Shown: piece after piece, positions 1,816-47,465 of the stretch
Position numbering within the stretch: position 1 is the first letter of the stretch
How the letters are laid out: the number at the start of each line of letters is the position of its first letter
NCBI GenBank assembly: GCA_964585475.1
Contig: CAZPDF010000001.1
Span: 1,441-65,440, forward strand
Reading direction: 5' to 3'
Source of the DNA: an uncultured Candidatus Saccharibacteria bacterium
Lineage (GTDB): Bacteria > Patescibacteriota > Minisyncoccia > Sungbacterales > HO2-52-23
Length of the DNA stretch: 64,000 nucleotides
Program-made: the position numbers and the translations under genes
The notes under the pieces: generated by a model
The model's input: the letters and a program-made list of their open reading frames with translations, nothing else
Databases searched by the model: none
What the model was told of the DNA's origin: nothing

Positions 1816-2241
1816 TCATGTCTTTTTCCTGTCCTTTTCCATTTCAGCAGTTTCAACCGCATAGACTGCCTTATGCAGTCTTCCATTTTCTAAGTCGGTG
1901 GGAAGGTTATAGCCGTAACAACTTGAGCCTGGTATTACTGGTTTCCACCCCGCCTTTTCGTATATGGAGTAGGCAGGATCATTTTCGGCAATTGAATTGA
2001 ATAGGAGACCCGCCTTTTTCCGTAAATCAAGAAAGTGATTAAGTTCGTTGAGAATATCTTTCCCAAATCCTTGGTTTCTCGCGTGTGGTAAAACAAACAC
2101 CAGTTTTATGTAATAAAACGGGAATGGGCTGTTTCTATATTCTAAATTTGCGAAGCCGACCATATCGCCTTCTGTCTGTAGTTCAATACGATGTATTTTC
2201 CCCTCTGTCGCGGGAGGTTTAAGGTGTTCAAATTCTTTCAT
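1816..2241 (-). CDS. GNAT family N-acetyltransferase
   Basis: 141-aa ORF with an acetyl-CoA binding motif in ARNQGFGKDILNEL (Q/R-x-x-G-x-G/A) and a typical GNAT size. Confidence 0.75.
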   Translation of the reverse strand: MKEFEHLKPPATEGKIHRIELQTEGDMVGFANLEYRNSPFPFYYIKLVFVLPHARNQGFGKDILNELNHFLDLRKKAGLLFNSIAENDPAYSIYEKAGWKPVIPGSSCYGYNLPTDLENGRLHKAVYAVETAEMEKDRKKT

Positions 2242-2283
2242 AATTTTTTAGCCAATTAGGCCTCTCGACAAAAAGTTATTTAC

Positions 2284-2330
2284 CGGCGAGGGGAGGATTC
2301 GAACCTCCGGTACCATTGTTGGTACACCTG
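2284..2330 (-). other. tRNA-Ser-like 3' fragment (variable arm, T arm, acceptor strand)
   Basis: Minus strand reads GGTGTACCAACAATGGTACC-GGAGGTTCGAATCCTCC-CCTCGCC-G. No adjacent 5' half is present. The strand CCTCGCC could pair with GGTGGGG at 2914..2920 using two G:U pairs. It is preceded by a local hairpin CGATTTGT-TG-CCAAAATTTC...GAAATTTTGG-ACAAATCG. Confidence 0.4.
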
Positions 2331-2434
2331 TTTTTTCCCGATTTGTCCAAAATTTCGATTCAATTTGAAGAAGAAATTTTGGCAACAAATCGCAATCCCG
2401 TTCAAAACGGAGGCGAGAGGATTTGAACCTCTGA

Positions 2435-2548
2435 GGGGATTTCGGTTGCCTTCTCGGCAAACCCCAGGGCCGACTTTTGTAAAACGTTCGCAAGGCGCAC
2501 TTAAATAAAGTAGTCGGCCCGCGAAACGATCGGTAATCGTTTCGCCCA
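2435..2548 (-). repeat. three-hairpin structured element, copy 1 (in the variable region of the outer tRNA-Ser)
   Basis: Minus strand reads TGGGCGAAACGATTACCGATCGTTTCGC-GGGCCGACT...TGCGAACGT...AGTCGGCCC-TGGGGTTTGCCGAGAAGGCAACCGAAATCCCC. It shares the blocks TGGGCGAAA, TTTCGCGGG, TGCGAACGT, CCCTGGG, TTTGCCGA and GAAGGCAA with copy 2. Confidence 0.65.
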
Positions 2549-2583
2549 GCCGGTTTCTTGCCCCGCACTAAAATTTGGATTTT

Positions 2584-2670
2584 CGGAAGCGGGAGGATTC
2601 GAACCTCCGATACGGTTTCCCGTATAACGGTTTTCGAGACCGTCCCATTCAACCACTCTGGCACGCTTCC
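2584..2670 (-). tRNA. tRNA-Ser(CGA)
   Basis: Hand-folded cloverleaf: GGAAGCG-TG-CCAGAGTGGTTGAATGGG-ACGGT-CTCGAAA-ACCGT-TATACGGGAAACCGTATC-GGAGGTTCGAATCCTCC-CGCTTCC-G. It has a long variable arm. No CCA is encoded. Confidence 0.85.
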
Positions 2671-2751
2671 AAATTTTTAGTGCGGGGTCGAGACCGGCGC
2701 TTTAGACCACTCAGCCACGCCTCCGTTTTGTCCGGGACGAGACCGTCCCAT

Positions 2752-2848
2752 TGTTTTGCCTTCGTCGGCAAAACCCAGGGAAATTTTTTACGTTCGCACG
2801 GCTCCGCCGGCTCGCTAAATTTCCCGCGAAAGTCTATAGCTTTCGCCC
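2752..2848 (-). repeat. three-hairpin structured element, copy 2 (in the D loop of a truncated tRNA-Ser-like fragment)
   Basis: Minus strand reads GCCAGAGTGG-[GCGAAAGCTATAGACTTTCGC-GGGAAATTT...GTGCGAACGTAAAAAATTTCCC-TGGGTTTTGCCGACGAAGGCAAAACA]-ATGGGACGGTCTCG. The flanks match the D arm and anticodon stem of the intact tRNA-Ser (GCCAGAGTGGTTGAATGGGACGGTCTCG). Confidence 0.65.
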
Positions 2849-2862
2849 ACTCTGGCATCCCG

Positions 2863-2920
2863 CCAAATTTTTAGTGCGGGGTCGAGACCGGCGCTTTCAA
2901 TCGGACTCAGCCACCCCACC
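2863..2920 (-). other. orphan tRNA-Ser-like 5' half plus helix arm
   Basis: Minus strand reads GGTGGGG-TG-GCTGAGTCCGATTGAAAGC-G-CCGGT-CTCGA-CCCCGCACTAAAAATTTGG. This is the same layout as the 5' part of the outer Ser gene at 2688..2724, but no matching second arm follows it. Confidence 0.45.
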
Positions 2921-2935
2921 CCAAGGCGCTAGCTC

Positions 2936-2964
2936 AAAATAGCATTTTTTTCTTGAAAATTCAA
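2936..2964 (-). promoter_or_regulatory. candidate sigma-70 promoter for the tRNA array
   Basis: Minus strand has TTGAAT, a 17-nt spacer, then TATTTT, ending about 15 nt upstream of the first tRNA-like 5' end at 2920. Confidence 0.45.
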
Positions 2965-3031
2965 CCGGCCGCCCTGCCGAAGGCACGGCTACGGCCGCCT
3001 TGGGGCGACCTGCCTCTAACGGGGTCAATGT

Positions 3032-5064: not shown

Positions 5065-5236
5065 TTTATCCGTCCTCTACGGCTGTAAGCGAGCTGTTTA
5101 GAAAATAGCACTTTCCATAAAATTTGTCAAACCAGTTAGAAAAACGGCGGAGATGTATGAAGAATTAAATTATTTGCGGCGTCAGCGGAATTTAACAGCA
5201 ATTTGGATTCAGCAGTTTTTCTCTAACGGGGTCAAC

Positions 5237-6573: not shown

Positions 6574-7095
6574 ATGAACACCGGAGAACAGAATAGTTTT
6601 CTTAAGGCATACGAAGATTTTTCAGACGCAATCTTCCGGTATTGCTATTTTCGGCTTTATCACCGGGAACTTGCGAAGGATCTCGCGCAGGAGACATTTA
6701 TAAAGACTTGGGAATACATTGCCAAGGGAGGGAAAGTGCAGAATATACGCGCGTTTTTATACCGCGTGGCGCGAAACCTCATTATCGATGAGTCAAGGAA
6801 AAAGCGGATGTTCTCTTTGGATTTATTGCGAGAAAAAGGGTTTGATCCGGCTGTATCCATGGAGGAGGAGATACAGTCCCACGCAGGCGTAAGGGATGTA
6901 ATGAAGTTTCTTTCGGATCTTGAGCCGAAATACCGCGAAGTAATTATCTTGCGCTTCGTTGAGGACATGTCACCCAAAGAAATTGCGGAGGCGATTGGTG
7001 AATCGGAAAATAATATATCGGTACGACTCCACCGCGCAATTAAAAAAGTGCGGGAGCTAATAGAGAAGGAATCTCGCCATCATGAATCCCGTTAG
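6574..7095 (+). CDS. RNA polymerase sigma-70 family ECF sigma factor
   Basis: 173 aa. Region 2 is DLAQETFIKTWEYI...FLYRVARNLIIDESRK. Region 4 HTH is MSPKEIAEAIGESENNISVRLHRAIKKV. Confidence 0.85.
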   Translation: MNTGEQNSFLKAYEDFSDAIFRYCYFRLYHRELAKDLAQETFIKTWEYIAKGGKVQNIRAFLYRVARNLIIDESRKKRMFSLDLLREKGFDPAVSMEEEIQSHAGVRDVMKFLSDLEPKYREVIILRFVEDMSPKEIAEAIGESENNISVRLHRAIKKVRELIEKESRHHESR

Positions 7096-7202
7096 AAGCC
7101 GCGATCGCATATCAAAAATAACAAATATCTCTATGTGCAACATTTTAGGTATAAATAATCCATGTAGATCGGATCACCTGATCGCGATCTGCTTCTAACG
7201 GG
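7088..7202. repeat. inverted repeat bridging the sigma stop codon and the downstream start codon
   Basis: cccgttagaagc (7088..7099, contains the TAG stop) and gcttctaacggg (7191..7202, ends 1 nt before the ATG at 7203) are perfect 12-bp complements. Further GATC-rich partial pairing lies inside. Confidence 0.6.
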
Positions 7203-8348
7203 ATGAAGCCTAATTTCGAAGAACTTATACGACTGGCAAAATCCGCCGGTCTTACGCGTGAGGAAAAGGACTCGATGAGGCGGGCGATCTTAGCATTTAT
7301 TGAATCCAGTCCTGTAAGAGTTTCGGTTTGGTCCCGTCTTCATTTTTATATTGCGGTCGAAGCGGAAAGAATAGGAGTTCTTTTCGCAAGGCCGGCGGTG
7401 AAAGCCGTGCCAATAGCTATAATTATTGTATTAATTCTGGGGGGCGGCGTTTCATACGCCGCAGAAGGGGCGCTTCCGGGAGACATACTTTATCCCGTGA
7501 AGGTTTCGATAAATGAAGAAGTTCGCGCTCGTTTTGCAATTTCTCCCGAATCCCGCGCGGCATGGGAGGCGAAAATTGCAGAAAGGCGGCTTGAAGAGGC
7601 AGAGGATCTCGTTTCCGAGGGGCGCATGAGCAGGGAGACCGCAGCGAAAATTGCGGAAAAATTTGACGCGCATGCCGAGCGGGTAAACGAACGTATTTTG
7701 GCGCTGGGCGCAGCCGATAAGGTTGAGGTGGCCGCCGATTTGAGCTCGAACTTCGAAACATCCCTTAAGGCGCACGACCGGATCCTTTGGCGTATCGCCG
7801 AGGGGCAGGAAGAAGCTAGTTCCTCGGTTAGGGAGATCCGCGAGAAGGTAAGGGCCAACGCCCGGAAGTTTATGAAAATCCGTTCTGAAAATGAGGAGAA
7901 AGTTTCCGCGTCTCTGGAAGTAAAAGCGCGAGCCGCGGCCACTGCCAAGCTGAATTCTGCGGAAGAGAAAATAAGCGAAACGAGGAAATATGCGTCTAGG
8001 ATCAAGGCACTATTGGGTGAGGTGTCTCTTGCCAGTATAGAAATGCGGCTTGAGGTTGCAACCAGGGTTCTCGCGGACGGTAAGGCGCGGTTTGAAGCAG
8101 GGGCGTACGGCGAGGCGTTTTCACTCGCCCAGAAAGCAGAGCGCATTGCTAAAGAAGCAAAACTTCTTGCGGCGGCGCGAAATGAGTTTAGAATAAATGT
8201 AGATTTTGATGAGCGCGCCGCGGCTGAGGGACTTCATAGGGATTCTGCCGCGGCATCCGATACTGAAGATAATTCTGGGGCCCACGACGATAATGATTCC
8301 GAGGATGAAAATATCCGCGATGGCGTAAAAAAGAAGGAGCAGAGATAA
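7203..8348 (+). CDS. DUF5667-like membrane protein (probable anti-sigma partner)
   Basis: 381 aa, located directly after the ECF sigma gene. It has one TM helix (AVKAVPIAIIIVLILGGGVSYAA) followed by LPGDILYPVKVSINE and a long Ala/Glu-rich helical region. Confidence 0.7.
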   Translation: MKPNFEELIRLAKSAGLTREEKDSMRRAILAFIESSPVRVSVWSRLHFYIAVEAERIGVLFARPAVKAVPIAIIIVLILGGGVSYAAEGALPGDILYPVKVSINEEVRARFAISPESRAAWEAKIAERRLEEAEDLVSEGRMSRETAAKIAEKFDAHAERVNERILALGAADKVEVAADLSSNFETSLKAHDRILWRIAEGQEEASSSVREIREKVRANARKFMKIRSENEEKVSASLEVKARAAATAKLNSAEEKISETRKYASRIKALLGEVSLASIEMRLEVATRVLADGKARFEAGAYGEAFSLAQKAERIAKEAKLLAAARNEFRINVDFDERAAAEGLHRDSAAASDTEDNSGAHDDNDSEDENIRDGVKKKEQR

Positions 8349-9040: not shown

Positions 9041-9150
9041 TGGGCAGTGAAGGAATCGAACCCCGTAGCAGAACCTTCGGTTCGCTACGGGGCAGGCCTA
9101 CGGCCTTCGCGGTGTAAACGCGACGCTCTTCCGGGGATTCTTCTATTTCG
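9041..9150 (-). pseudogene. degenerate tRNA-Val(TAC)-like remnant with a hairpin inserted in the T arm
   Basis: Minus strand reads ...GGAAGAGCGTCGCGTTTACACCGCGAAGGCC..., which matches the anticodon arm of the neighbouring tRNA-Val. It then continues CCCCGTAGC-GAACCGAAGGTTCT-GCTACGGGG-TTCGATTCCTTC-ACTGCCC-A. The T-stem strand GAAGG is trapped in the loop of a 9-bp hairpin, and no matching 5' acceptor strand (GGGCAGT) is present. Confidence 0.4.
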
Positions 9151-9159
9151 AGTGTAAAT

Positions 9160-9231
9160 TGGGCGCTCAAGGGATCGAACCTTGGGCCTTCTCGGTGTAA
9201 ACGAGACGCTCTACCACTGAGCTAAGCGCCC
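9160..9231 (-). tRNA. tRNA-Val(TAC)
   Basis: GGGCGCT-TA-GCTCAGTGGTAGAGC-G-TCTCG-TTTACAC-CGAGA-AGGCC-CAAGGTTCGATCCCTTG-AGCGCCC-A. All stems pair. Confidence 0.9.
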
Positions 9232-9235
9232 AAAA

Positions 9236-9740: not shown

Positions 9741-9822
9741 AAGTGTAACGGGGCAAGCTACCGCCTAATTTGATGAATTAGGCGAGCCTCGCTCAGCTTT
9801 GATGAGCGGGAGCCAAACGCCC

Positions 9823-10791: not shown

Positions 10792-11562
10792 TTATGGGGA
10801 TTGAATTTTTATGGCGTACGCGTGTTGCTTAAGCGTTTGGGCCGCTGACTTCAGCTTTTCTTGGTGGTGAGGGAAAAGATCTTTTAGGATTTCGGGATCA
10901 AGCTCAAAAATGAGCGCTGCATGCCCCACTATCGGCGCGGCATATGAAGGGTACATTTCCAGCGTTGCTGAATTGGTTGGAACGAACTCGTCTTTTTCGG
11001 CGCGTATCTGAAGGAGCTTCCGGGGATTATTTTGGATATCCTCCCGGAGTTTTGCCAGCCATTTCGAGTCCGGTCGGATTTGGCGCGCGGCCTCATGCCA
11101 GAAGACGAAACGCGCAAGGGATGATCCTCGAAAAGGCGTGCCTGCGGTGACTACCTGGAAGTGCATAAGCTCCGGGTCGCGTGCTTGAGCGGCAAGGATT
11201 ATGAGTCCTCCCATGCTGTGCCCCAAGAACACGAGGTCTTTTTCAAGGTCAGTAAGCCGCAGGCCGTATTTTTGATGCAATCTCTCTTCTTGTTTCGTGA
11301 GAAATTTGTCAAAGCGTGCTGTGAGGGTATCAATGTCTTTTCTCGCCCAGCCGGTGTCGGCGATGACCACATTAAACCCCGCATTCCCCAGCCGCGCACG
11401 CAACGGAAGCATGACCGACGGAGTTCCTCCGAGGCCATAGGCCAGAATTATATTGGGCCTTGTCGGATCAAGCTCGTTTTCTGGAATTGGTATAAGGGAG
11501 CCCGGAAAAAGGAGCAGGAGATACGAGAAAATATAGACCGCTTCTTTAATCCACTCAAACAC
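10792..11562 (-). CDS. alpha/beta hydrolase (lipase/esterase-like)
   Basis: 256 aa with an N-terminal TM/signal segment, the nucleophile elbow FLGHSMGG, and a His near the C-terminus (VGHAAL). Confidence 0.75.
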   Translation of the reverse strand: MFEWIKEAVYIFSYLLLLFPGSLIPIPENELDPTRPNIILAYGLGGTPSVMLPLRARLGNAGFNVVIADTGWARKDIDTLTARFDKFLTKQEERLHQKYGLRLTDLEKDLVFLGHSMGGLIILAAQARDPELMHFQVVTAGTPFRGSSLARFVFWHEAARQIRPDSKWLAKLREDIQNNPRKLLQIRAEKDEFVPTNSATLEMYPSYAAPIVGHAALIFELDPEILKDLFPHHQEKLKSAAQTLKQHAYAIKIQSP

Positions 11563-11630
11563 CGTGTTTCTCCTTTGAGAGTGCGTAGTTTATTAGTAGA
11601 GGAAATTAAGTCCGAGGTCAAATTAAATCA

Positions 11631-11788: not shown

Positions 11789-11976
11789 TGGCCCCAATGG
11801 GATTCGAACCCATGTACTGGGCTCTTGCCCTCCCACTTTTTTGTTTGCCGCCACCGGGATTCGAACCCGGGTACCGGGCTTGAAAAGCCCGTGTCCTAGA
11901 CCAAGCTAGACGATGGCGGCGTCAAAAGTGGGAGGGTGAAAAAAGCCCATGTCCTAGGCCTCTAGACGATGGGGCC
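11789..11976 (-). other. interrupted (outer) tRNA-Glu-like gene enclosing tRNA-Glu 11846..11920
   Basis: Minus strand reads GGCCCCA-TC-GTCTAGAGGCCTAGGAC-A-TGGGC-TTTTTTCA-[CCCTCCCACTTTT-gac-inner tRNA-aacaa-AAAAGTGGGAGGG]-CAAGA-GCCCA-GTAC-ATGGGTTCGAATCCCAT-TGGGGCC-A. The acceptor, anticodon and T stems of the outer molecule are perfectly paired, and the D stem pairs with one G:U. Confidence 0.55.
11846..11920 (-). tRNA. tRNA-Glu(TTC)
   Basis: GCCGCCA-TC-GTCTAGCTTGGTCTAGGAC-A-CGGGC-TTTTCAA-GCCCG-GTAC-CCGGGTTCGAATCCCGG-TGGCGGC-A. Confidence 0.9.
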
Positions 11977-12083
11977 AAAATTAAGTTAAAAGCATAAAGT
12001 CAAAAGTTCAAAGTCAACGAACTAACTATATCAAAAATTTGGTAAAATTTCAAATGAAAAAACCCAACTCGACAAGAGTTAGG

Positions 12084-12499: not shown

Positions 12500-14035
12500 A
12501 TGCGGTACGAAGTTGTCATAGGCCTCGAAATCCACGCGGAGCTCAAAACCAAAACCAAGATGTTTTGCTATTCTTTGAATGACCCGAACGAGAAGCACCC
12601 GAATATAAATGTGTGCCCAATTTGTATGGGGCATCCCGGAACTCTGCCGGTAATAAATGAGGAAGCGGTGAAAAAAGTTATTACGGTGGGGCTTGCTTTG
12701 GGCGGCGAGATTCCCGAATTTTCGCAATTTGACCGCAAGAATTATTTTTATCCCGACTTGCCTAAGGGATACCAGATATCGCAGTATCAACACCCCCTCG
12801 TTCAAGGAGGATATCTTGAACTCCAAATCCCAAATCCCAAATTCCAAATCTCAAACAAATCTCAAATTCCAAATTCTAAGTCCGAAACGCGAGGGATACG
12901 AATCCAGAGAATTCATCTCGAGGAAGATACGGGACGCCTCATACATGATAAAGCGTCCGGCGCTTCGCTAGTTGACTTCAATCGCGCTGGGGTGCCGCTC
13001 ATGGAGTTAGTGACCGAGCCGGATTTGCGATCCGGGGAAGAAGTGAAGAAATTCGGGGAGGAGCTGCAGCGAATCTTGCGTTACCTTGGCGCATCGGACG
13101 CGGATATGGAAAAAGGCCAGATGAGGGTGGAGGTGAATATTTCACTCCGTGAACTACCAACTACCAACGACCAACGACCAACGACCTTAGGCACGAAGGT
13201 AGAAATTAAAAACATCAACTCCTTCAAATATGCCGCTGATGCGGTGGAGTATGAGACCAGACGGCAGAGCGAACTCTTGGAGCGCGGCGAAAAAGTAATT
13301 CAGGAGACGCGGGGGTGGAATGAAAAAAAGCAAGAGACTTTTTCACAGCGTTCCAAGGAAGAAGCGCATGACTACCGCTATTTTCCGGAACCGGATCTCC
13401 CGCCGCTCAAAATTTCGCGGGAATTGGTTGAAGAGCTGCGGGCACGTCTTCCCGAACTGCCGGAGTCAAAAAAGACCCGGTTGGTAAAAGAATACGGGTT
13501 GGAACAGGGCGTGATTGAGATTCTCATACGCGAAAAATCGCTTGCCGATTATTTCGAGGCGGTCGCAAGTGAGCTTATGCAGCACGATAAGGAGACGCCC
13601 GAGAAGTCATCCAAAAATCCAGTTGCTATTGCCGCCTCATTTCTAACGGGCGACTTCCTGCGGATTCTTAATGAAAGCGGGGCGCAAGCAAATGATACTC
13701 GTGTAACTGCAGAAAATTTTGCGGAGCTTGTGATATATTTTGCCGAGGAGAAAGTCTCAAATCTTACCGCGAAGCAAGTCCTTGAGGAAATGTTTCGATC
13801 GGGCGAAGATCCCTCCGATATCATCGATCGCCTGGGGTTATGGCAGATGAGCGATACTGCGGATTTAGAGAATATTGCGGGGCACATTATTGAGGAGAAT
13901 CCCAAAGCGGTTGAGGATTTCCGACGGGGGAAAGAGGCCTCGCTTCAATTTTTGGTGGGGCAGGTGATGAAAGAGACCAGGGGAAAGGCAAATCCGAAGG
14001 TTGTGCTGGAAATATTAAAGAAGCTCATGAGTTAA
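12500..14035 (+). CDS. gatB: Asp-tRNA(Asn)/Glu-tRNA(Gln) amidotransferase subunit B
   Basis: 511 aa with VIGLEIHAELKTKTKMFC, CPICMGHPGTLPV, GYQISQ, RIHLEEDTGR, VEIKNINSF and a C-terminal YqeY-like tail. It contains two extra low-complexity segments encoded by heptamer repeats. Confidence 0.92.
   Translation: MRYEVVIGLEIHAELKTKTKMFCYSLNDPNEKHPNINVCPICMGHPGTLPVINEEAVKKVITVGLALGGEIPEFSQFDRKNYFYPDLPKGYQISQYQHPLVQGGYLELQIPNPKFQISNKSQIPNSKSETRGIRIQRIHLEEDTGRLIHDKASGASLVDFNRAGVPLMELVTEPDLRSGEEVKKFGEELQRILRYLGASDADMEKGQMRVEVNISLRELPTTNDQRPTTLGTKVEIKNINSFKYAADAVEYETRRQSELLERGEKVIQETRGWNEKKQETFSQRSKEEAHDYRYFPEPDLPPLKISRELVEELRARLPELPESKKTRLVKEYGLEQGVIEILIREKSLADYFEAVASELMQHDKETPEKSSKNPVAIAASFLTGDFLRILNESGAQANDTRVTAENFAELVIYFAEEKVSNLTAKQVLEEMFRSGEDPSDIIDRLGLWQMSDTADLENIAGHIIEENPKAVEDFRRGKEASLQFLVGQVMKETRGKANPKVVLEILKKLMS
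12823..12878 (+). repeat. tandem heptamer repeat (CCAAATC family) inside gatB
   Basis: ccaaatc ccaaatc ccaaatt ccaaatc tcaaaca aatctca aattcca aattcta. It encodes QIPNPKFQISNKSQIPNSK, between the conserved GGYLE and IRIQRIHLEED blocks. Confidence 0.8.
13154..13186 (+). repeat. tandem heptamer repeat (CTACCAA/CGACCAA) inside gatB
   Basis: ctaccaa ctaccaa cgaccaa cgaccaa cgacc. It encodes LPTTNDQRPTT, just before the conserved GTKVEIKNINSF. Confidence 0.8.
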
Positions 14036-28568: not shown

Positions 28569-28749
<181 letters not shown>

Positions 28750-37182: not shown

Positions 37183-37190
37183 AAGTTTAT

Positions 37191-37261
37191 TCCGGGGTCG
37201 TCTAACGGTAGGACACATGCCTCTGGAGCATGGTATCTTGGTTCGATTCCAGGCCCCGGAG
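37191..37261 (+). tRNA. tRNA-Gln(CTG)
   Basis: TCCGGGG-TC-GTCTAACGGTAGGAC-A-CATGC-CTCTGGA-GCATG-GTAT-CTTGGTTCGATTCCAGG-CCCCGGA-G. Confidence 0.9.
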
Positions 37262-37285
37262 TTTTGTGCGGGAGACGCGGAAATT

Positions 37286-37396
37286 GGGGGCAAAACGCAA
37301 AATGCTTTGCGTTTTGCGGGACTGCTACATTAAATCCGCGAGCTAACGAGCGTAAAAAATAAAGGCAGTCCCGGGAATTTGTGAAGGAACAAATTG
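37286..37396 (+). repeat. three-hairpin structured element, copy 3 (immediately 3' of tRNA-Gln)
   Basis: GGGGGCAAAACGCAAAATGCTTTGCGTTTTGC-GGGACTGC...GCGAGCTAACGAGCGTAAAAAATAAAGGCAGTCCC-GGGAATTTGTGAAGGAACAAATT. It shares TTT(C/T)GCGGGA, CGA(A/G)CGTAAAAAAT, TCCC(T/G)GG and the GAAGG hairpin loop with copy 2. It is followed at 37396..37416 by TTGATTCTCTGTCCCGGAGTTTT, an imperfect duplicate of the tRNA-Gln 3' end TTCGATTCCAGGCCCCGGAGTTTT. The 11-nt perfect direct repeat CCCGGAGTTTT lies at 37255..37265 and 37406..37416. Confidence 0.6.
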
Positions 37397-37432
37397 ATTC
37401 TCTGTCCCGGAGTTTTATGATAGAACTTATCT

Positions 37433-47042: not shown

Positions 47043-47102
47043 AGGGCTTTCTCTAAATTTTCGAGTTCGTAGAACGAAGAAAATTTAGCTAGAAAACCTT
47101 TA

Positions 47103-47370
47103 CCGAGCACTCAATTTATTCTGCTATGTATTATGTCTATGTGATTCGTAATCGGAAGTCGCGGGAAACCTATATCGGTTATTCCGACGACTTGAAACGG
47201 AGGTTACGAGAACACAAGGATAAAAATCCGGAGCTTCTGTATTACGAAGCATACAAAAGCGAGAAGGATGCAAGGATACGGGAGAAAAAGCTGAAGCAGC
47301 GGGGGACAAAGCATCCGCTGGCTCAAAGAAAGATTGAAGTACAGTTTAGCAGAATAAATTGAGTGCTCGG
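47103..47370 (+). mobile_element. GIY-YIG gene cassette bounded by perfect 23-bp inverted repeats
   Basis: ccgagcactcaatttattctgct (47103..47125) and agcagaataaattgagtgctcgg (47348..47370) are exact reverse complements. The ATG follows the left repeat directly, and the stop codon lies inside the right repeat. Confidence 0.6.
47126..47362 (+). CDS. GIY-YIG nuclease superfamily small protein
   Basis: 78 aa. MYYVYVIRNRKSRETYIGYSDDLKRRLREH contains the GIY-(10)-YIG motif plus the conserved Arg and Glu. Confidence 0.8.
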   Translation: MYYVYVIRNRKSRETYIGYSDDLKRRLREHKDKNPELLYYEAYKSEKDARIREKKLKQRGTKHPLAQRKIEVQFSRIN

Positions 47371-47465
47371 TGCTCAATGCTGTTACCAAATTTTCTTCAC
47401 CGTTGGTTCGAAAATTTGGACATCATTGGCAAATAATAAAAAAGAGGGGCATGTCGCCCCTGAGT

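Follow-up and report, generated by a model that had tools for sequence, protein, structure and literature searches.

Three loci in the 64,000-nucleotide stretch of DNA analysed here (contig CAZPDF010000001.1 of an uncultured Candidatus Saccharibacteria bacterium; hereafter the window) carry one tRNA gene inside another. At each of them an intact inner tRNA gene between complementary arms of 10-18 bp interrupts another tRNA gene in its anticodon loop. Inner and outer gene share their isotype, which is Ser at locus 1, Glu at locus 2 and Thr at locus 3. A first-pass annotation made from the sequence alone had reported this nesting, and all of the sequences that it quoted were recovered where it had placed them. 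The tRNA genes of the window were called with ARAGORN and the Rfam tRNA model, and its open reading frames (ORFs) were scanned with Pfam. For comparison, ~1.5 Mb of Parcubacteria DNA around gatB was sampled with all of its ARAGORN tRNAs, and 160 gatB loci were used for the arm family; loci of related DNA carry L-numbers (L001, L093 and so on), among which L161 is the complete genome CP066690.1.

Only the inner genes were called by ARAGORN and Rfam: tRNA-Ser(CGA) at 2583-2671 on the minus strand (57.5 bits with the Rfam tRNA model), tRNA-Glu(TTC) at 11846-11920 on the minus strand (62 bits) and tRNA-Thr(CGT) at 28618-28691 on the plus strand (76.2 bits). Running ARAGORN with introns allowed, at default or wide limits, recovered none of the outer genes in the window. 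The same search over all sampled loci gave no intron-bearing tRNA, its lone match, a Val(gac) in L164, crossing a run of N that represents a scaffold gap. CCA is not encoded by the tRNA genes at the three loci. The arms were found by repeat search. At locus 1, 2561-2576 pairs with 2672-2687 (16 nt, 94%); by eye the helix reaches 18 bp with one bulged A, and the final GG of its 5' arm forms bases 1-2 of the inner tRNA. At locus 2 the pairing of 11828-11840 with 11924-11936 is perfect at 13 of 13 positions, as is that of 28604-28613 with 28696-28705 at locus 3 (10 of 10). Every arm type begins with CCC, and at loci 1 and 2 an unpaired CAAG follows the 3' arm. This CAAG tail is also found on cargo-less hairpins in L087, L116 and L152.

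Locus 1 was originally delimited to 2408-2724. The architecture described for that interval holds, and the true extent is 2284-2920 on the minus strand, where four tRNA-Ser layers are stacked and a previously unrecognised insert, termed element X, is present. Read from 2920 to 2284, the order is layer A, arm alpha, layer B with a first copy of X (X1), arm beta, the start of layer C, arm alpha again, layer D, the alpha complement with CAAG, the rest of layer C with a second copy of X (X2), the beta complement, ~60 nt and a fragment E. Layer A (2882-2920) is the 5' half of the outermost tRNA-Ser(CGA)-like gene, designated type 1, and ends with CCGGTCTCGA (CTCGA) in the anticodon loop; no matching 3' half was found for it. 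The first 5' copy of arm alpha, CCCCGCACTAAAAATTTGG (2863-2881), is identical to the second copy at 2669-2687. Layer B (2738-2864) consists of the 5' two-thirds of a tRNA-Ser of type 2, like layer D, ending with ACGGTCTCG (CTCG) at position 35/36, and its D loop holds X1, a three-hairpin insert of 94 nt (2753-2846). The 5' arm beta, TCCCGGACAAAAC (2725-2737), pairs with its complement GTTTTGAACGGGA (2396-2408) across all of layer C, over 20 nt at 90% when the acceptor stem of C is included.

Layer C is the outer Ser gene of the first-pass annotation. Its 5' half (2688-2724) ends with CTCGA at 36/37 and runs into the second copy of arm alpha, whose last GG overlaps the start of the inner tRNA, layer D, which is presumed functional. 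Behind layer D follow the 3' arm alpha, CCAAATTTTAGTGCGGGG, with the unpaired CAAG (2557-2578), and AAACCGGCTGG (2546-2556), which supplies the 3' strand of the layer C anticodon stem and the start of its variable arm. X2 (102 nt; 2444-2545) fills the loop of that variable arm, and its removal leaves a normal Ser variable arm. The remainder of layer C (2408-2443) provides the rest of the variable arm, the T arm AGAGG TTCAAAT CCTCT and the acceptor strand CGCCTCC with discriminator G. Fragment E (2284-2332) is a tRNA-Ser 3' half with a variable arm, a T arm and CCTCGCC G.

Pairwise identities are 82% for A and C, 78% for B and D, and 76% for E and D versus 64% for E and C, so that, from the outside inwards, the four-layer stack alternates between the two types, starting with type 1. 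Fragment E probably represents the 3' half of layer B in a decayed state; B and E pair at 6 of 7 acceptor positions with one G:U, and their anticodon stem is broken. A 56-nt junction segment, composed of outer end, arm and inner start, occurs twice at locus 1 with 89% identity and includes an identical 32-nt junction. Deletion of the insert does recreate the loop CTCGAAA, as had been noted, and a valid product appears once the 102-nt X2 is removed as well: layer C minus the 131-nt cassette and minus X2 is called by ARAGORN as an 84-nt tRNA-Ser(cga).

The outer gene of locus 2 is split on the minus strand into a tRNA-Glu-like 5' half (11937-11976), ending with TTTTTTCA, and a 3' half (11789-11823), between which lie the 5' arm CCCTCCCACTTTT (11924-11936), the inner tRNA-Glu and the 3' arm AAAAGTGGGAGGG with its CAAG (11824-11840). 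Its stems are perfect, as first described, and its 7-nt TTC loop is not restorable by a single excision; no single deletion yields TGGGC-TTTTCAA-GCCCA. Four cuts made in silico gave Lys(ttt), SeC(tca) or a Glu with a 9-nt loop, depending on the cut, the last being the product already pointed out. A promoter-like site, TTGAAA-17-TATAGT (10/12 matches, extended TG), is located at 12025-12053 on the minus strand, ~48 nt upstream of the outer Glu 5' end, and none was seen between the outer half and the inner tRNA-Glu. Since the sole promoter-like site of locus 2 precedes the outer 5' half, the inner tRNA is probably made from a composite transcript.

At locus 3, on the plus strand, the outer 5' half (28569-28601) has the acceptor strand GCCCGAG, which forms one C:C mismatch with CTCCGGC. 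It is followed by the 5' arm GCCCGTTAGAAA (28602-28613), which repeat and family searches place in a widespread palindromic family, CCCGTTAGA, by the inner tRNA-Thr, by the 3' arm TTTCTAACGGAC (28696-28707) and by the outer 3' part (28708-28749; TAA ACAGC ... CTCCGGC T), which is 76% identical to the inner gene from T36 onward. The acceptor mismatch had been recognised earlier and the anticodon left unclear; homology now identifies the outer gene as a relic of Thr(CGT) with its break near 35/36. In addition to the mismatch its anticodon stem has 4 bp, and excision in silico gives no canonical product.

Element X is ~95-110 nt long and was found in five copies: X1, X2, X3 (37287-37395, plus strand), one in L164 (~2470-2575, minus strand) and one in L161 (~1994-2100, minus strand). 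The copies share a three-helix consensus with compensatory changes in 9 of 27 pairs; helix 2 is wholly different in sequence between X1 and X2 and covaries fully. The conserved motifs are GCGA(A/G)CGT and GGG(T)TTTGC.GA, and the left flanks end in ..GG. X may be a non-coding RNA, a mobile element that targets loops or the remnant of an intron. Three copies lie within a tRNA relic, in the D loop or D-arm region (X1 and L164) or in the variable loop (X2), and X3 and the L161 copy directly precede a relic 3' end. Rfam gave no match for X in the region searched, window 2200-3000, which contains X1 and X2. X3 fills the middle of a tRNA-Gln relic (37267-37412, plus strand) with a 5' piece TGCGGGA.. 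and a 3' piece ..GATTCTCTGTCCCGGAG; this relic stands directly 3' of the live tRNA-Gln(ctg) at 37190-37262, in tandem with it and not nested.

Nesting of the same kind recurs in related DNA. In L093 and L094, whose GatB is 56% identical to that of the window, three nests were found. A tRNA-Gly(ccc) lies between CCTCCCATCTTT arms ending in GGGAGGGCAAG, an exact match to locus 2, within a Gly-like shell whose 3' end is decayed. The tRNA-Thr(cgt) forms a three-layer stack, the middle layer of which is bounded by TCCCGTTAGA/CTAACGGGA, the arm type of locus 3; the junction of CTCG with NCCCGTTAGA is common to locus 3 and to this stack, and the innermost Thr shows homology to the outermost gene that continues into the flanks, over at least 12 nt of leader and 24 nt of trailer. 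The third nest consists of tRNA-Gln(ctg) cassettes in the T loop of an outer Gln gene whose anticodon arm is intact. L161 carries a Val(tac) between CCCCGTTAGAAAT arms at 35/36 of an outer Val gene that lacks its 3' acceptor; the junction TTTATTCACYCCGTTAGA occurs in two layers there and is repeated upstream of the outer Val gene. L164 holds an armed Glu with relic pieces and the X-like element. Broken T arms or acceptors characterise the outer Gly, the outermost Thr and the outer Val of L093 and L161. Mapped insertion points are the anticodon loop at 35/36 or 36/37, the T loop and position 26/27, with the D loop and the variable loop for X. An assembly artefact was considered and rejected: the arms are unique sequence, independent assemblies as well as the complete genome CP066690.1 repeat the architecture, and the Gln arrangement of L093 is found in four further contigs (L176-L179) from different samples.

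The sites themselves are old. The gene order gatB, VTT-domain gene, Gly(ccc), penicillin-binding protein, DUF4015, Thr(cgt), release factor, ftsEX, Gln(ctg) is the same in the window and in L163, and in L093 and L094 gatB and the three tRNA genes follow it too, which indicates that the nests occupy ancestral tRNA positions. Comparison with relatives, which the first-pass annotation had proposed, showed uninterrupted syntenic tRNAs (Gly, Thr and Gln in L163, Glu in L161 and L001) and decaying outer halves. For Val(TAC), survival is reciprocal: the live gene of the window (9159-9232) is of the type that is the dead outer gene in L161, and the window relic at 9041-9129 is of the type that is live as the inner gene there. 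This relic, on the minus strand and 29 nt downstream of the live Val(tac), runs from the 3' strand of the D stem to the acceptor ACTGCCC, discriminator A and CCA; its anticodon arm is intact and its T arm contains a 34-nt hairpin insert. L093 and L094 are ~100% identical at the Gly and Thr loci, yet different inserts occupy one point of their outer Gln. A 26-nt tandem duplication of the arm end and the 5' start of the inner tRNA-Gly was also seen in L094 (~13100-13135) and is absent from L093 (4975-5000).

At every multi-layer locus, preservation drops from the inside to the outside. The divergence between inner and outer copies amounts to ~20-25% and includes compensatory changes in the stems, and they are thus separate functional lineages and not local duplicates; local duplication was ruled out as the source of nesting on these grounds. 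Shell and cargo are of the same isotype at every nest that can be typed, namely Ser three times, Glu twice, Thr three times, Gln and Val, and the Gly shell is probably a further match. Such a rule cannot be chance.

Arms and nesting go together without exception, and pairing of this strength lies well beyond chance. The longest exact complement between leader and trailer is 10-13 nt for nested tRNAs versus 3-7 nt for un-nested ones in the ~1.5 Mb sample. Leader/trailer duplex energies of the 10 nested tRNA calls range from -17.5 to -36 kcal/mol (z of -2.8 to -6.8), whereas all of the ~48 un-nested calls are at or above -16 with z mostly near 0. All 10 armed tRNAs are nested or within an interrupted tRNA gene, and the ~48 without arms are not nested, by which leader-trailer pairing as a general tRNA trait of the clade was rejected.

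The arms of locus 3 belong to the palindrome YCCCGTTAGA...TCTAACGGGR, present in 28 of the 160 gatB loci. Copies of this CCCGTTAGA family range in spacing from bare 25-nt hairpins to more than 200 nt, carry variable cargo or none, and nest in one another. Of 25 distinct copies, 10 have an exact 4-bp direct repeat on either side (in 5000 shuffles, mean 1.6 and maximum 7), which looks like a target-site duplication. A scan of viral contigs for armed tRNA cassettes returned 10 matches; similar hairpins were present on only two of these (L166 and L174, from IMG/VR), and none had tRNA cargo. The family is widespread in Parcubacteria, often abutting start codons, and the viral-collection contig L174 shares ATGAA flanks. 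One cargo-less copy lies in the window at 7087-7203 on the plus strand, with ~20-bp arms and the flanking direct repeat TGAA, between the stop of ORF 6574-7095 (the 5' arm contains this TAG) and the start codon ATG of the DUF5667 gene; half-sites occur on the minus strand at 3015-3022, 5222-5229, 13642-13649 and 37201-37208. In L161 (12662-14343) and also in L162, oppositely oriented copies flank a HicB-HicA-methyltransferase segment, like a composite cassette. A solo arm-like motif, CTTGCCCCGTTACAC, stands directly upstream of tRNA-Val(gac) at 9742-9756 on the minus strand and is the reverse complement of the GGGGCAAG tail found 3' of many arms.

Small GIY-YIG nuclease genes accompany interrupted or partly duplicated tRNA genes in the relatives. 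In L093 an 80-aa GIY-YIG ORF (11349-11591; Pfam E=1e-13) lies beside the inner Gln, within the outer Gln; in L092 a homologue (tblastn E=6e-8) has the intact tRNA-Met on one side and, on the other, 11 nt that duplicate the 5' end of this tRNA; and in L180 a Pfam-annotated GIY-YIG ORF lies between a 16-nt duplicate (leader and 5' end) and an interrupted tRNA-His. In the last case the ORF is upstream of the His-like gene, between two copies of ACATTCCGCGATAGCT, which comprises leader and tRNA 5' end; the His-like gene itself (~1130-1850) is split in the anticodon loop by a segment with an HNH-type ORF, and ARAGORN finds no tRNA there. The window also contains a minimal, mobile-looking GIY-YIG cassette at 47101-47373 on the plus strand, a 78-aa ORF (47126-47362) within the perfect 25-bp inverted repeat ACCGAGCACTCAATTTATTCTGCTA. 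Armed GIY-YIG ORFs with perfect inverted repeats are further present in L008 (17 bp; a homologous copy in the nusG-rplK spacer) and L152 (28 bp). With these ORFs bracketed in this way, arms plus cargo are a general cassette form in these genomes.

These data probably reflect invasion, at the DNA level, of a resident tRNA gene by a replacement-tRNA cassette bounded by inverted repeats, the outer halves being relics. In such a model a resident tRNA gene at its ancestral position would be entered in a loop by a short cassette made of a complete tRNA of the same isoacceptor and its arms. The cassette tRNA would take over the function, leaving the split resident gene as a decaying shell, and later cassettes would enter the live inner tRNA, building a Russian-doll stack with the oldest layer outermost. 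Transcription of the live tRNA would start at the old promoter, which precedes the outer 5' half, and give a composite primary transcript. Within it the paired arms may clamp leader to trailer, allowing the inner tRNA to fold apart from its look-alike shell, and the arm helix may be a processing site. Release would be by RNase P, RNase Z or exonucleases, possibly with RNase III acting on the arm helix, and the outer halves would be discarded without splicing, having served only as leader and trailer. Of the two readings that the first-pass annotation offered, this is close to the one of a mobile element that brings its own same-isotype replacement and leaves a relic. Decay with depth, empty syntenic sites, strain polymorphism and the occurrence of the locus 3 arm family without tRNA cargo bear that reading out in its main lines. 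Two of its parts need correction, as insertion is not confined to anticodon loops (T loop and 26/27 in relatives) and more than one palindromic element is involved.

Within this invasion model, there is a roughly even chance that spread is homing-like. A donor with a cassette in the homologous tRNA gene would recombine with, or repair, an uninterrupted cognate allele, the outer half-tRNAs acting as homology arms, and a break made by the small GIY-YIG nucleases may help. Homing with the outer halves as homology would yield the same-isoacceptor rule, the junctions repeated across layers and genomes, and the alternation of A and C with B and D at locus 1. A bolder version holds that these are selfish tRNA genes, minimal homing cassettes of arms and one tRNA, with or without a GIY-YIG nuclease of ~80 aa, spreading among Parcubacteria; this is put forward tentatively, as a possibility that we tend to doubt. 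The cassette would break the cognate gene in a loop, the cell would come to depend on the nuclease-immune allele, and a rival allele would invade next. The A/C and B/D layers would then be the fossil record of a ping-pong between alleles, and X would be a second structured partner that targets loops.

Several observations weigh against invasion by a mobile cassette. The three arm pairs of the window have three different sequences, hence they do not represent a single palindromic element. No nuclease, transposase or recombinase gene was found at or near the three loci among the Pfam-scanned ORFs. Target-site duplications, seen with cargo-less copies of the CCCGTTAGA family, are absent from its tRNA-nested copies (window locus 3, L093 Thr, L094 Gln and L161 Val), and none is visible at loci 1 and 2; simple cut-and-paste transposition is a poor fit for this reason. 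Homing does not explain the existence of the arms. The flawless stems of the outer Ser (layer C) and outer Glu fit recent insertion and, equally, continued selection. All inserts, X included, lie in tRNA loops and not in stems, which a purely double-stranded-DNA mechanism does not predict. Lastly, no diverged genome pair was found that shares an insertion and could give decay rates; the best GatB identity is 76%, which leaves no species-level relative of the window available, and with it no orthologous nested locus for a rate test.

An alternative in which MITE-type transposition (MITE, miniature inverted-repeat transposable element) produces the nests, with the arms as terminal inverted repeats used in trans and with random landings that survive only where the cargo replaces the single-copy tRNA that was hit, is unlikely, although the CCCGTTAGA family gives it substance. 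Copies with variable cargo or none are common and mutually nested, their 4-bp repeats far exceed expectation (10/25 versus 1.6), they flank the HicAB-methyltransferase segment of L161 and L162, and similar hairpins are on the IMG/VR contigs L166 and L174. However, none of the tRNA-nested copies shows the duplication, and arm sequences vary between cassettes. Neither the window nor the sampled loci, a limited sample, yielded a transposase with matching ends, and the 2-kb interval between distant arm copies in L004 contains the threonyl-tRNA synthetase gene and other ordinary genes. Random insertion further predicts mostly neutral, intergenic armed tRNAs, whereas in this sample each armed tRNA is enclosed by a relic that matches it in isotype; as not one was met outside a shell, transposition with selection explains the same-isotype rule less well. 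Neither homing nor transposition explains why all inserts lie in tRNA loops. That every mapped insertion point is single-stranded in the folded tRNA would suit an origin at the RNA level, in which a hairpin-clamped pre-tRNA is ligated into a nicked cognate loop (by an RNA ligase, after damage by an anticodon nuclease) and the chimera is copied back into the gene. We regard this as very improbable, since none of the loci showed a reverse transcriptase, the cassette takes along leader and trailer sequence from beyond the mature ends, and the GIY-YIG associations point to DNA breaks.

The other reading first offered for these loci was that of a spliced composite precursor: the arm-bounded tRNA and X would be cut from an outer pre-tRNA by some bacterial pathway of cleavage and ligation (RNase III or a different endonuclease, say, together with RtcB), giving at least two tRNAs with the same anticodon. 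In its favour are the canonical 84-nt tRNA-Ser(cga) with the loop CTCGAAA that remains from the outer Ser, the perfect acceptor, D, anticodon and T stems of outer Ser and outer Glu, the placement of all inserts in loops, and arms that join both junctions as intron helices do. tRNA introns are, moreover, frequent in Patescibacteria, position 35/36 included (PMC13011429). Nevertheless, the bulge-helix-bulge (BHB; a 3-nt bulge, a 4-bp helix and a 3-nt bulge) is absent from all junctions, as read from sequence and fold. The arm helix begins right at the 5' junction, and before the 3' junction there are 0-6 unpaired nt (often CAAG), which makes an internal loop beside the anticodon stem. A group I or II core was likewise not found. 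Two of the three outer genes, Glu and Thr, give no canonical tRNA by any single excision, and truncation, mismatches or the lack of a partner half affect layers A and B/E as well as the majority of outer copies in L093, L161 and L164. The product would repeat the inner anticodon without apparent need, no sampled locus has a cargo-less hairpin insert in the sole copy of a tRNA, and the Pfam-scanned ORFs of the 64-kb window include no EndA, RtcB or RNase III, for which a search had been suggested. Functional composite genes are accordingly improbable, if less remote than the RNA-level route. The splicing part of the earlier reading is not supported, and its notion of a composite transcript in need of processing is probably right, given the promoter-like site upstream of the outer half at locus 2.

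Among known kinds of mobile DNA, two are nearest in logic: free-standing homing cassettes that carry a replacement, and hairpin MITEs. Free-standing homing-endonuclease cassettes carry a replacement for the segment that they displace, as do phage T4 seg and mob genes (with the GIY-YIG nuclease SegB in a tRNA cluster) and mitochondrial mobile ORFs with a duplicate gene end. The likeness would lie in the invasion of a conserved essential gene without splicing, in a substitute copy and in a displaced part that stays as a pseudogene. Flanking gene halves would give homology for spread, and here outer halves flank every cassette and empty alleles exist in relatives; the small GIY-YIG genes in interrupted or partly duplicated tRNA genes of relatives are a further parallel. 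In contrast to those cassettes, the ones in the window have no nuclease gene, their substitute is a whole gene nested inside, and inverted repeats bound them. No description of multi-layer nesting in homing-cassette systems was found in literature searches or is known to us. MITEs and REPIN-like or Correia-like repeats resemble the present elements in being short, non-coding, multi-copy hairpins bounded by inverted repeats, with conserved ends, variable interiors and mutual nesting; the 4-bp direct repeats around cargo-less CCCGTTAGA members and terminal inverted repeats of 10-18 bp agree with this. They differ in that the cargo here is a functional tRNA gene, nested copies have no target duplications, the sites are loops of the cognate tRNA and no partner transposase was found.

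Integrase islands in tRNA genes supply only the 3' part of the tRNA, leave a direct partial repeat kilobases away and encode an integrase. They share the target, often the anticodon or T loop, and the restoration of a working tRNA. Here, unlike in such islands, a complete tRNA is nested within ~100 nt, there is no direct att repeat and no integrase; neither a tyrosine nor a serine integrase is among the Pfam-scanned ORFs of the window. The resemblance to archaeal split tRNAs that had been remarked upon is structural only. Intron-containing, split and permuted archaeal tRNAs (Nanoarchaeum) are also interrupted within the anticodon loop or at non-canonical sites, have halves that complementary sequences join and show several interruptions in one gene, as with X and the cassette in the outer Ser. 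The present host, in contrast, is a bacterium, the BHB is missing, the insert is a tRNA with the same anticodon, most outer genes are dead and no splicing endonuclease is in evidence.

Group I introns occupy anticodon loops of Patescibacteria tRNAs, including position 35/36 (PMC13011429). Phylum, target and association with homing endonucleases are shared with the nests, and 35/36 is also the site in layer B, locus 3, L093 Thr and L161 Val. The inserts at the nests differ from such introns: they measure 95-131 nt, lack a catalytic core, have a 5' exon that does not end in U and are unable to self-splice in their present form. Rfam found no group I intron at the gathering threshold in the window or in L093 and L094, none at E<=10 in window 2200-3000 and none at E<=1 in L093 11200-12300. 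A group I intron, known ribozyme or known small RNA was rejected as the identity of the inserts and of X, there being no Rfam match. Conceivably, capture of a tRNA by degenerate introns gave rise to the cassettes.

Nothing relevant on nested, mobile or selfish tRNA genes, or on the arm sequence, came from literature searches, among them no account of a tRNA gene nested in a cognate one. There is a substantial chance that the nests represent a distinct class of selfish tRNA cassette. If the invasion model is right, a mobile element that is not an intron can settle in a non-coding gene that is essential and present once, by bringing a spare copy of the gene it destroys. The model would account for fast turnover of tRNA genes, and for their horizontal replacement, in the tiny genomes of Patescibacteria, and the stacks would form a layered fossil record of successive invasions. 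Annotation is affected as well. tRNA finders see the inner gene only, which bears on tRNA counts and on calls of missing tRNAs in candidate-phyla genomes, and relic halves can pass for split or intron-containing tRNAs. Questions are raised about the nuclease that cuts tRNA genes, about the leader-trailer stalk as a processing signal and about the identity of the X RNA.

Around the nests, the window has the gene content of a bacterial chromosome segment, encoding GatB, a class A penicillin-binding protein (PBP1), two ClpB/ClpC-type ATPases, a release factor, FtsE/FtsX, ABC transporters and DUF5667 and DUF5715 proteins. The relatives of its GatB are all Patescibacteria, the nearest named ones being Candidatus Sungbacteria/Sungiibacteriota. 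A phage origin of the window was rejected on the basis of this gene content and of a megablast search against phage genomes, which gave no match. At 16850-16922 on the minus strand lies an atypical tRNA-Pro(tgg) with 42 bits in Rfam, which ARAGORN calls only at a relaxed threshold and which has the non-canonical T loop TGCAAGT. In L001, the GatB match (377-2626) covers 2250 nt for a 511-aa query, which suggests an insertion of ~700 nt in gatB, whether an intein, an intron or another element.

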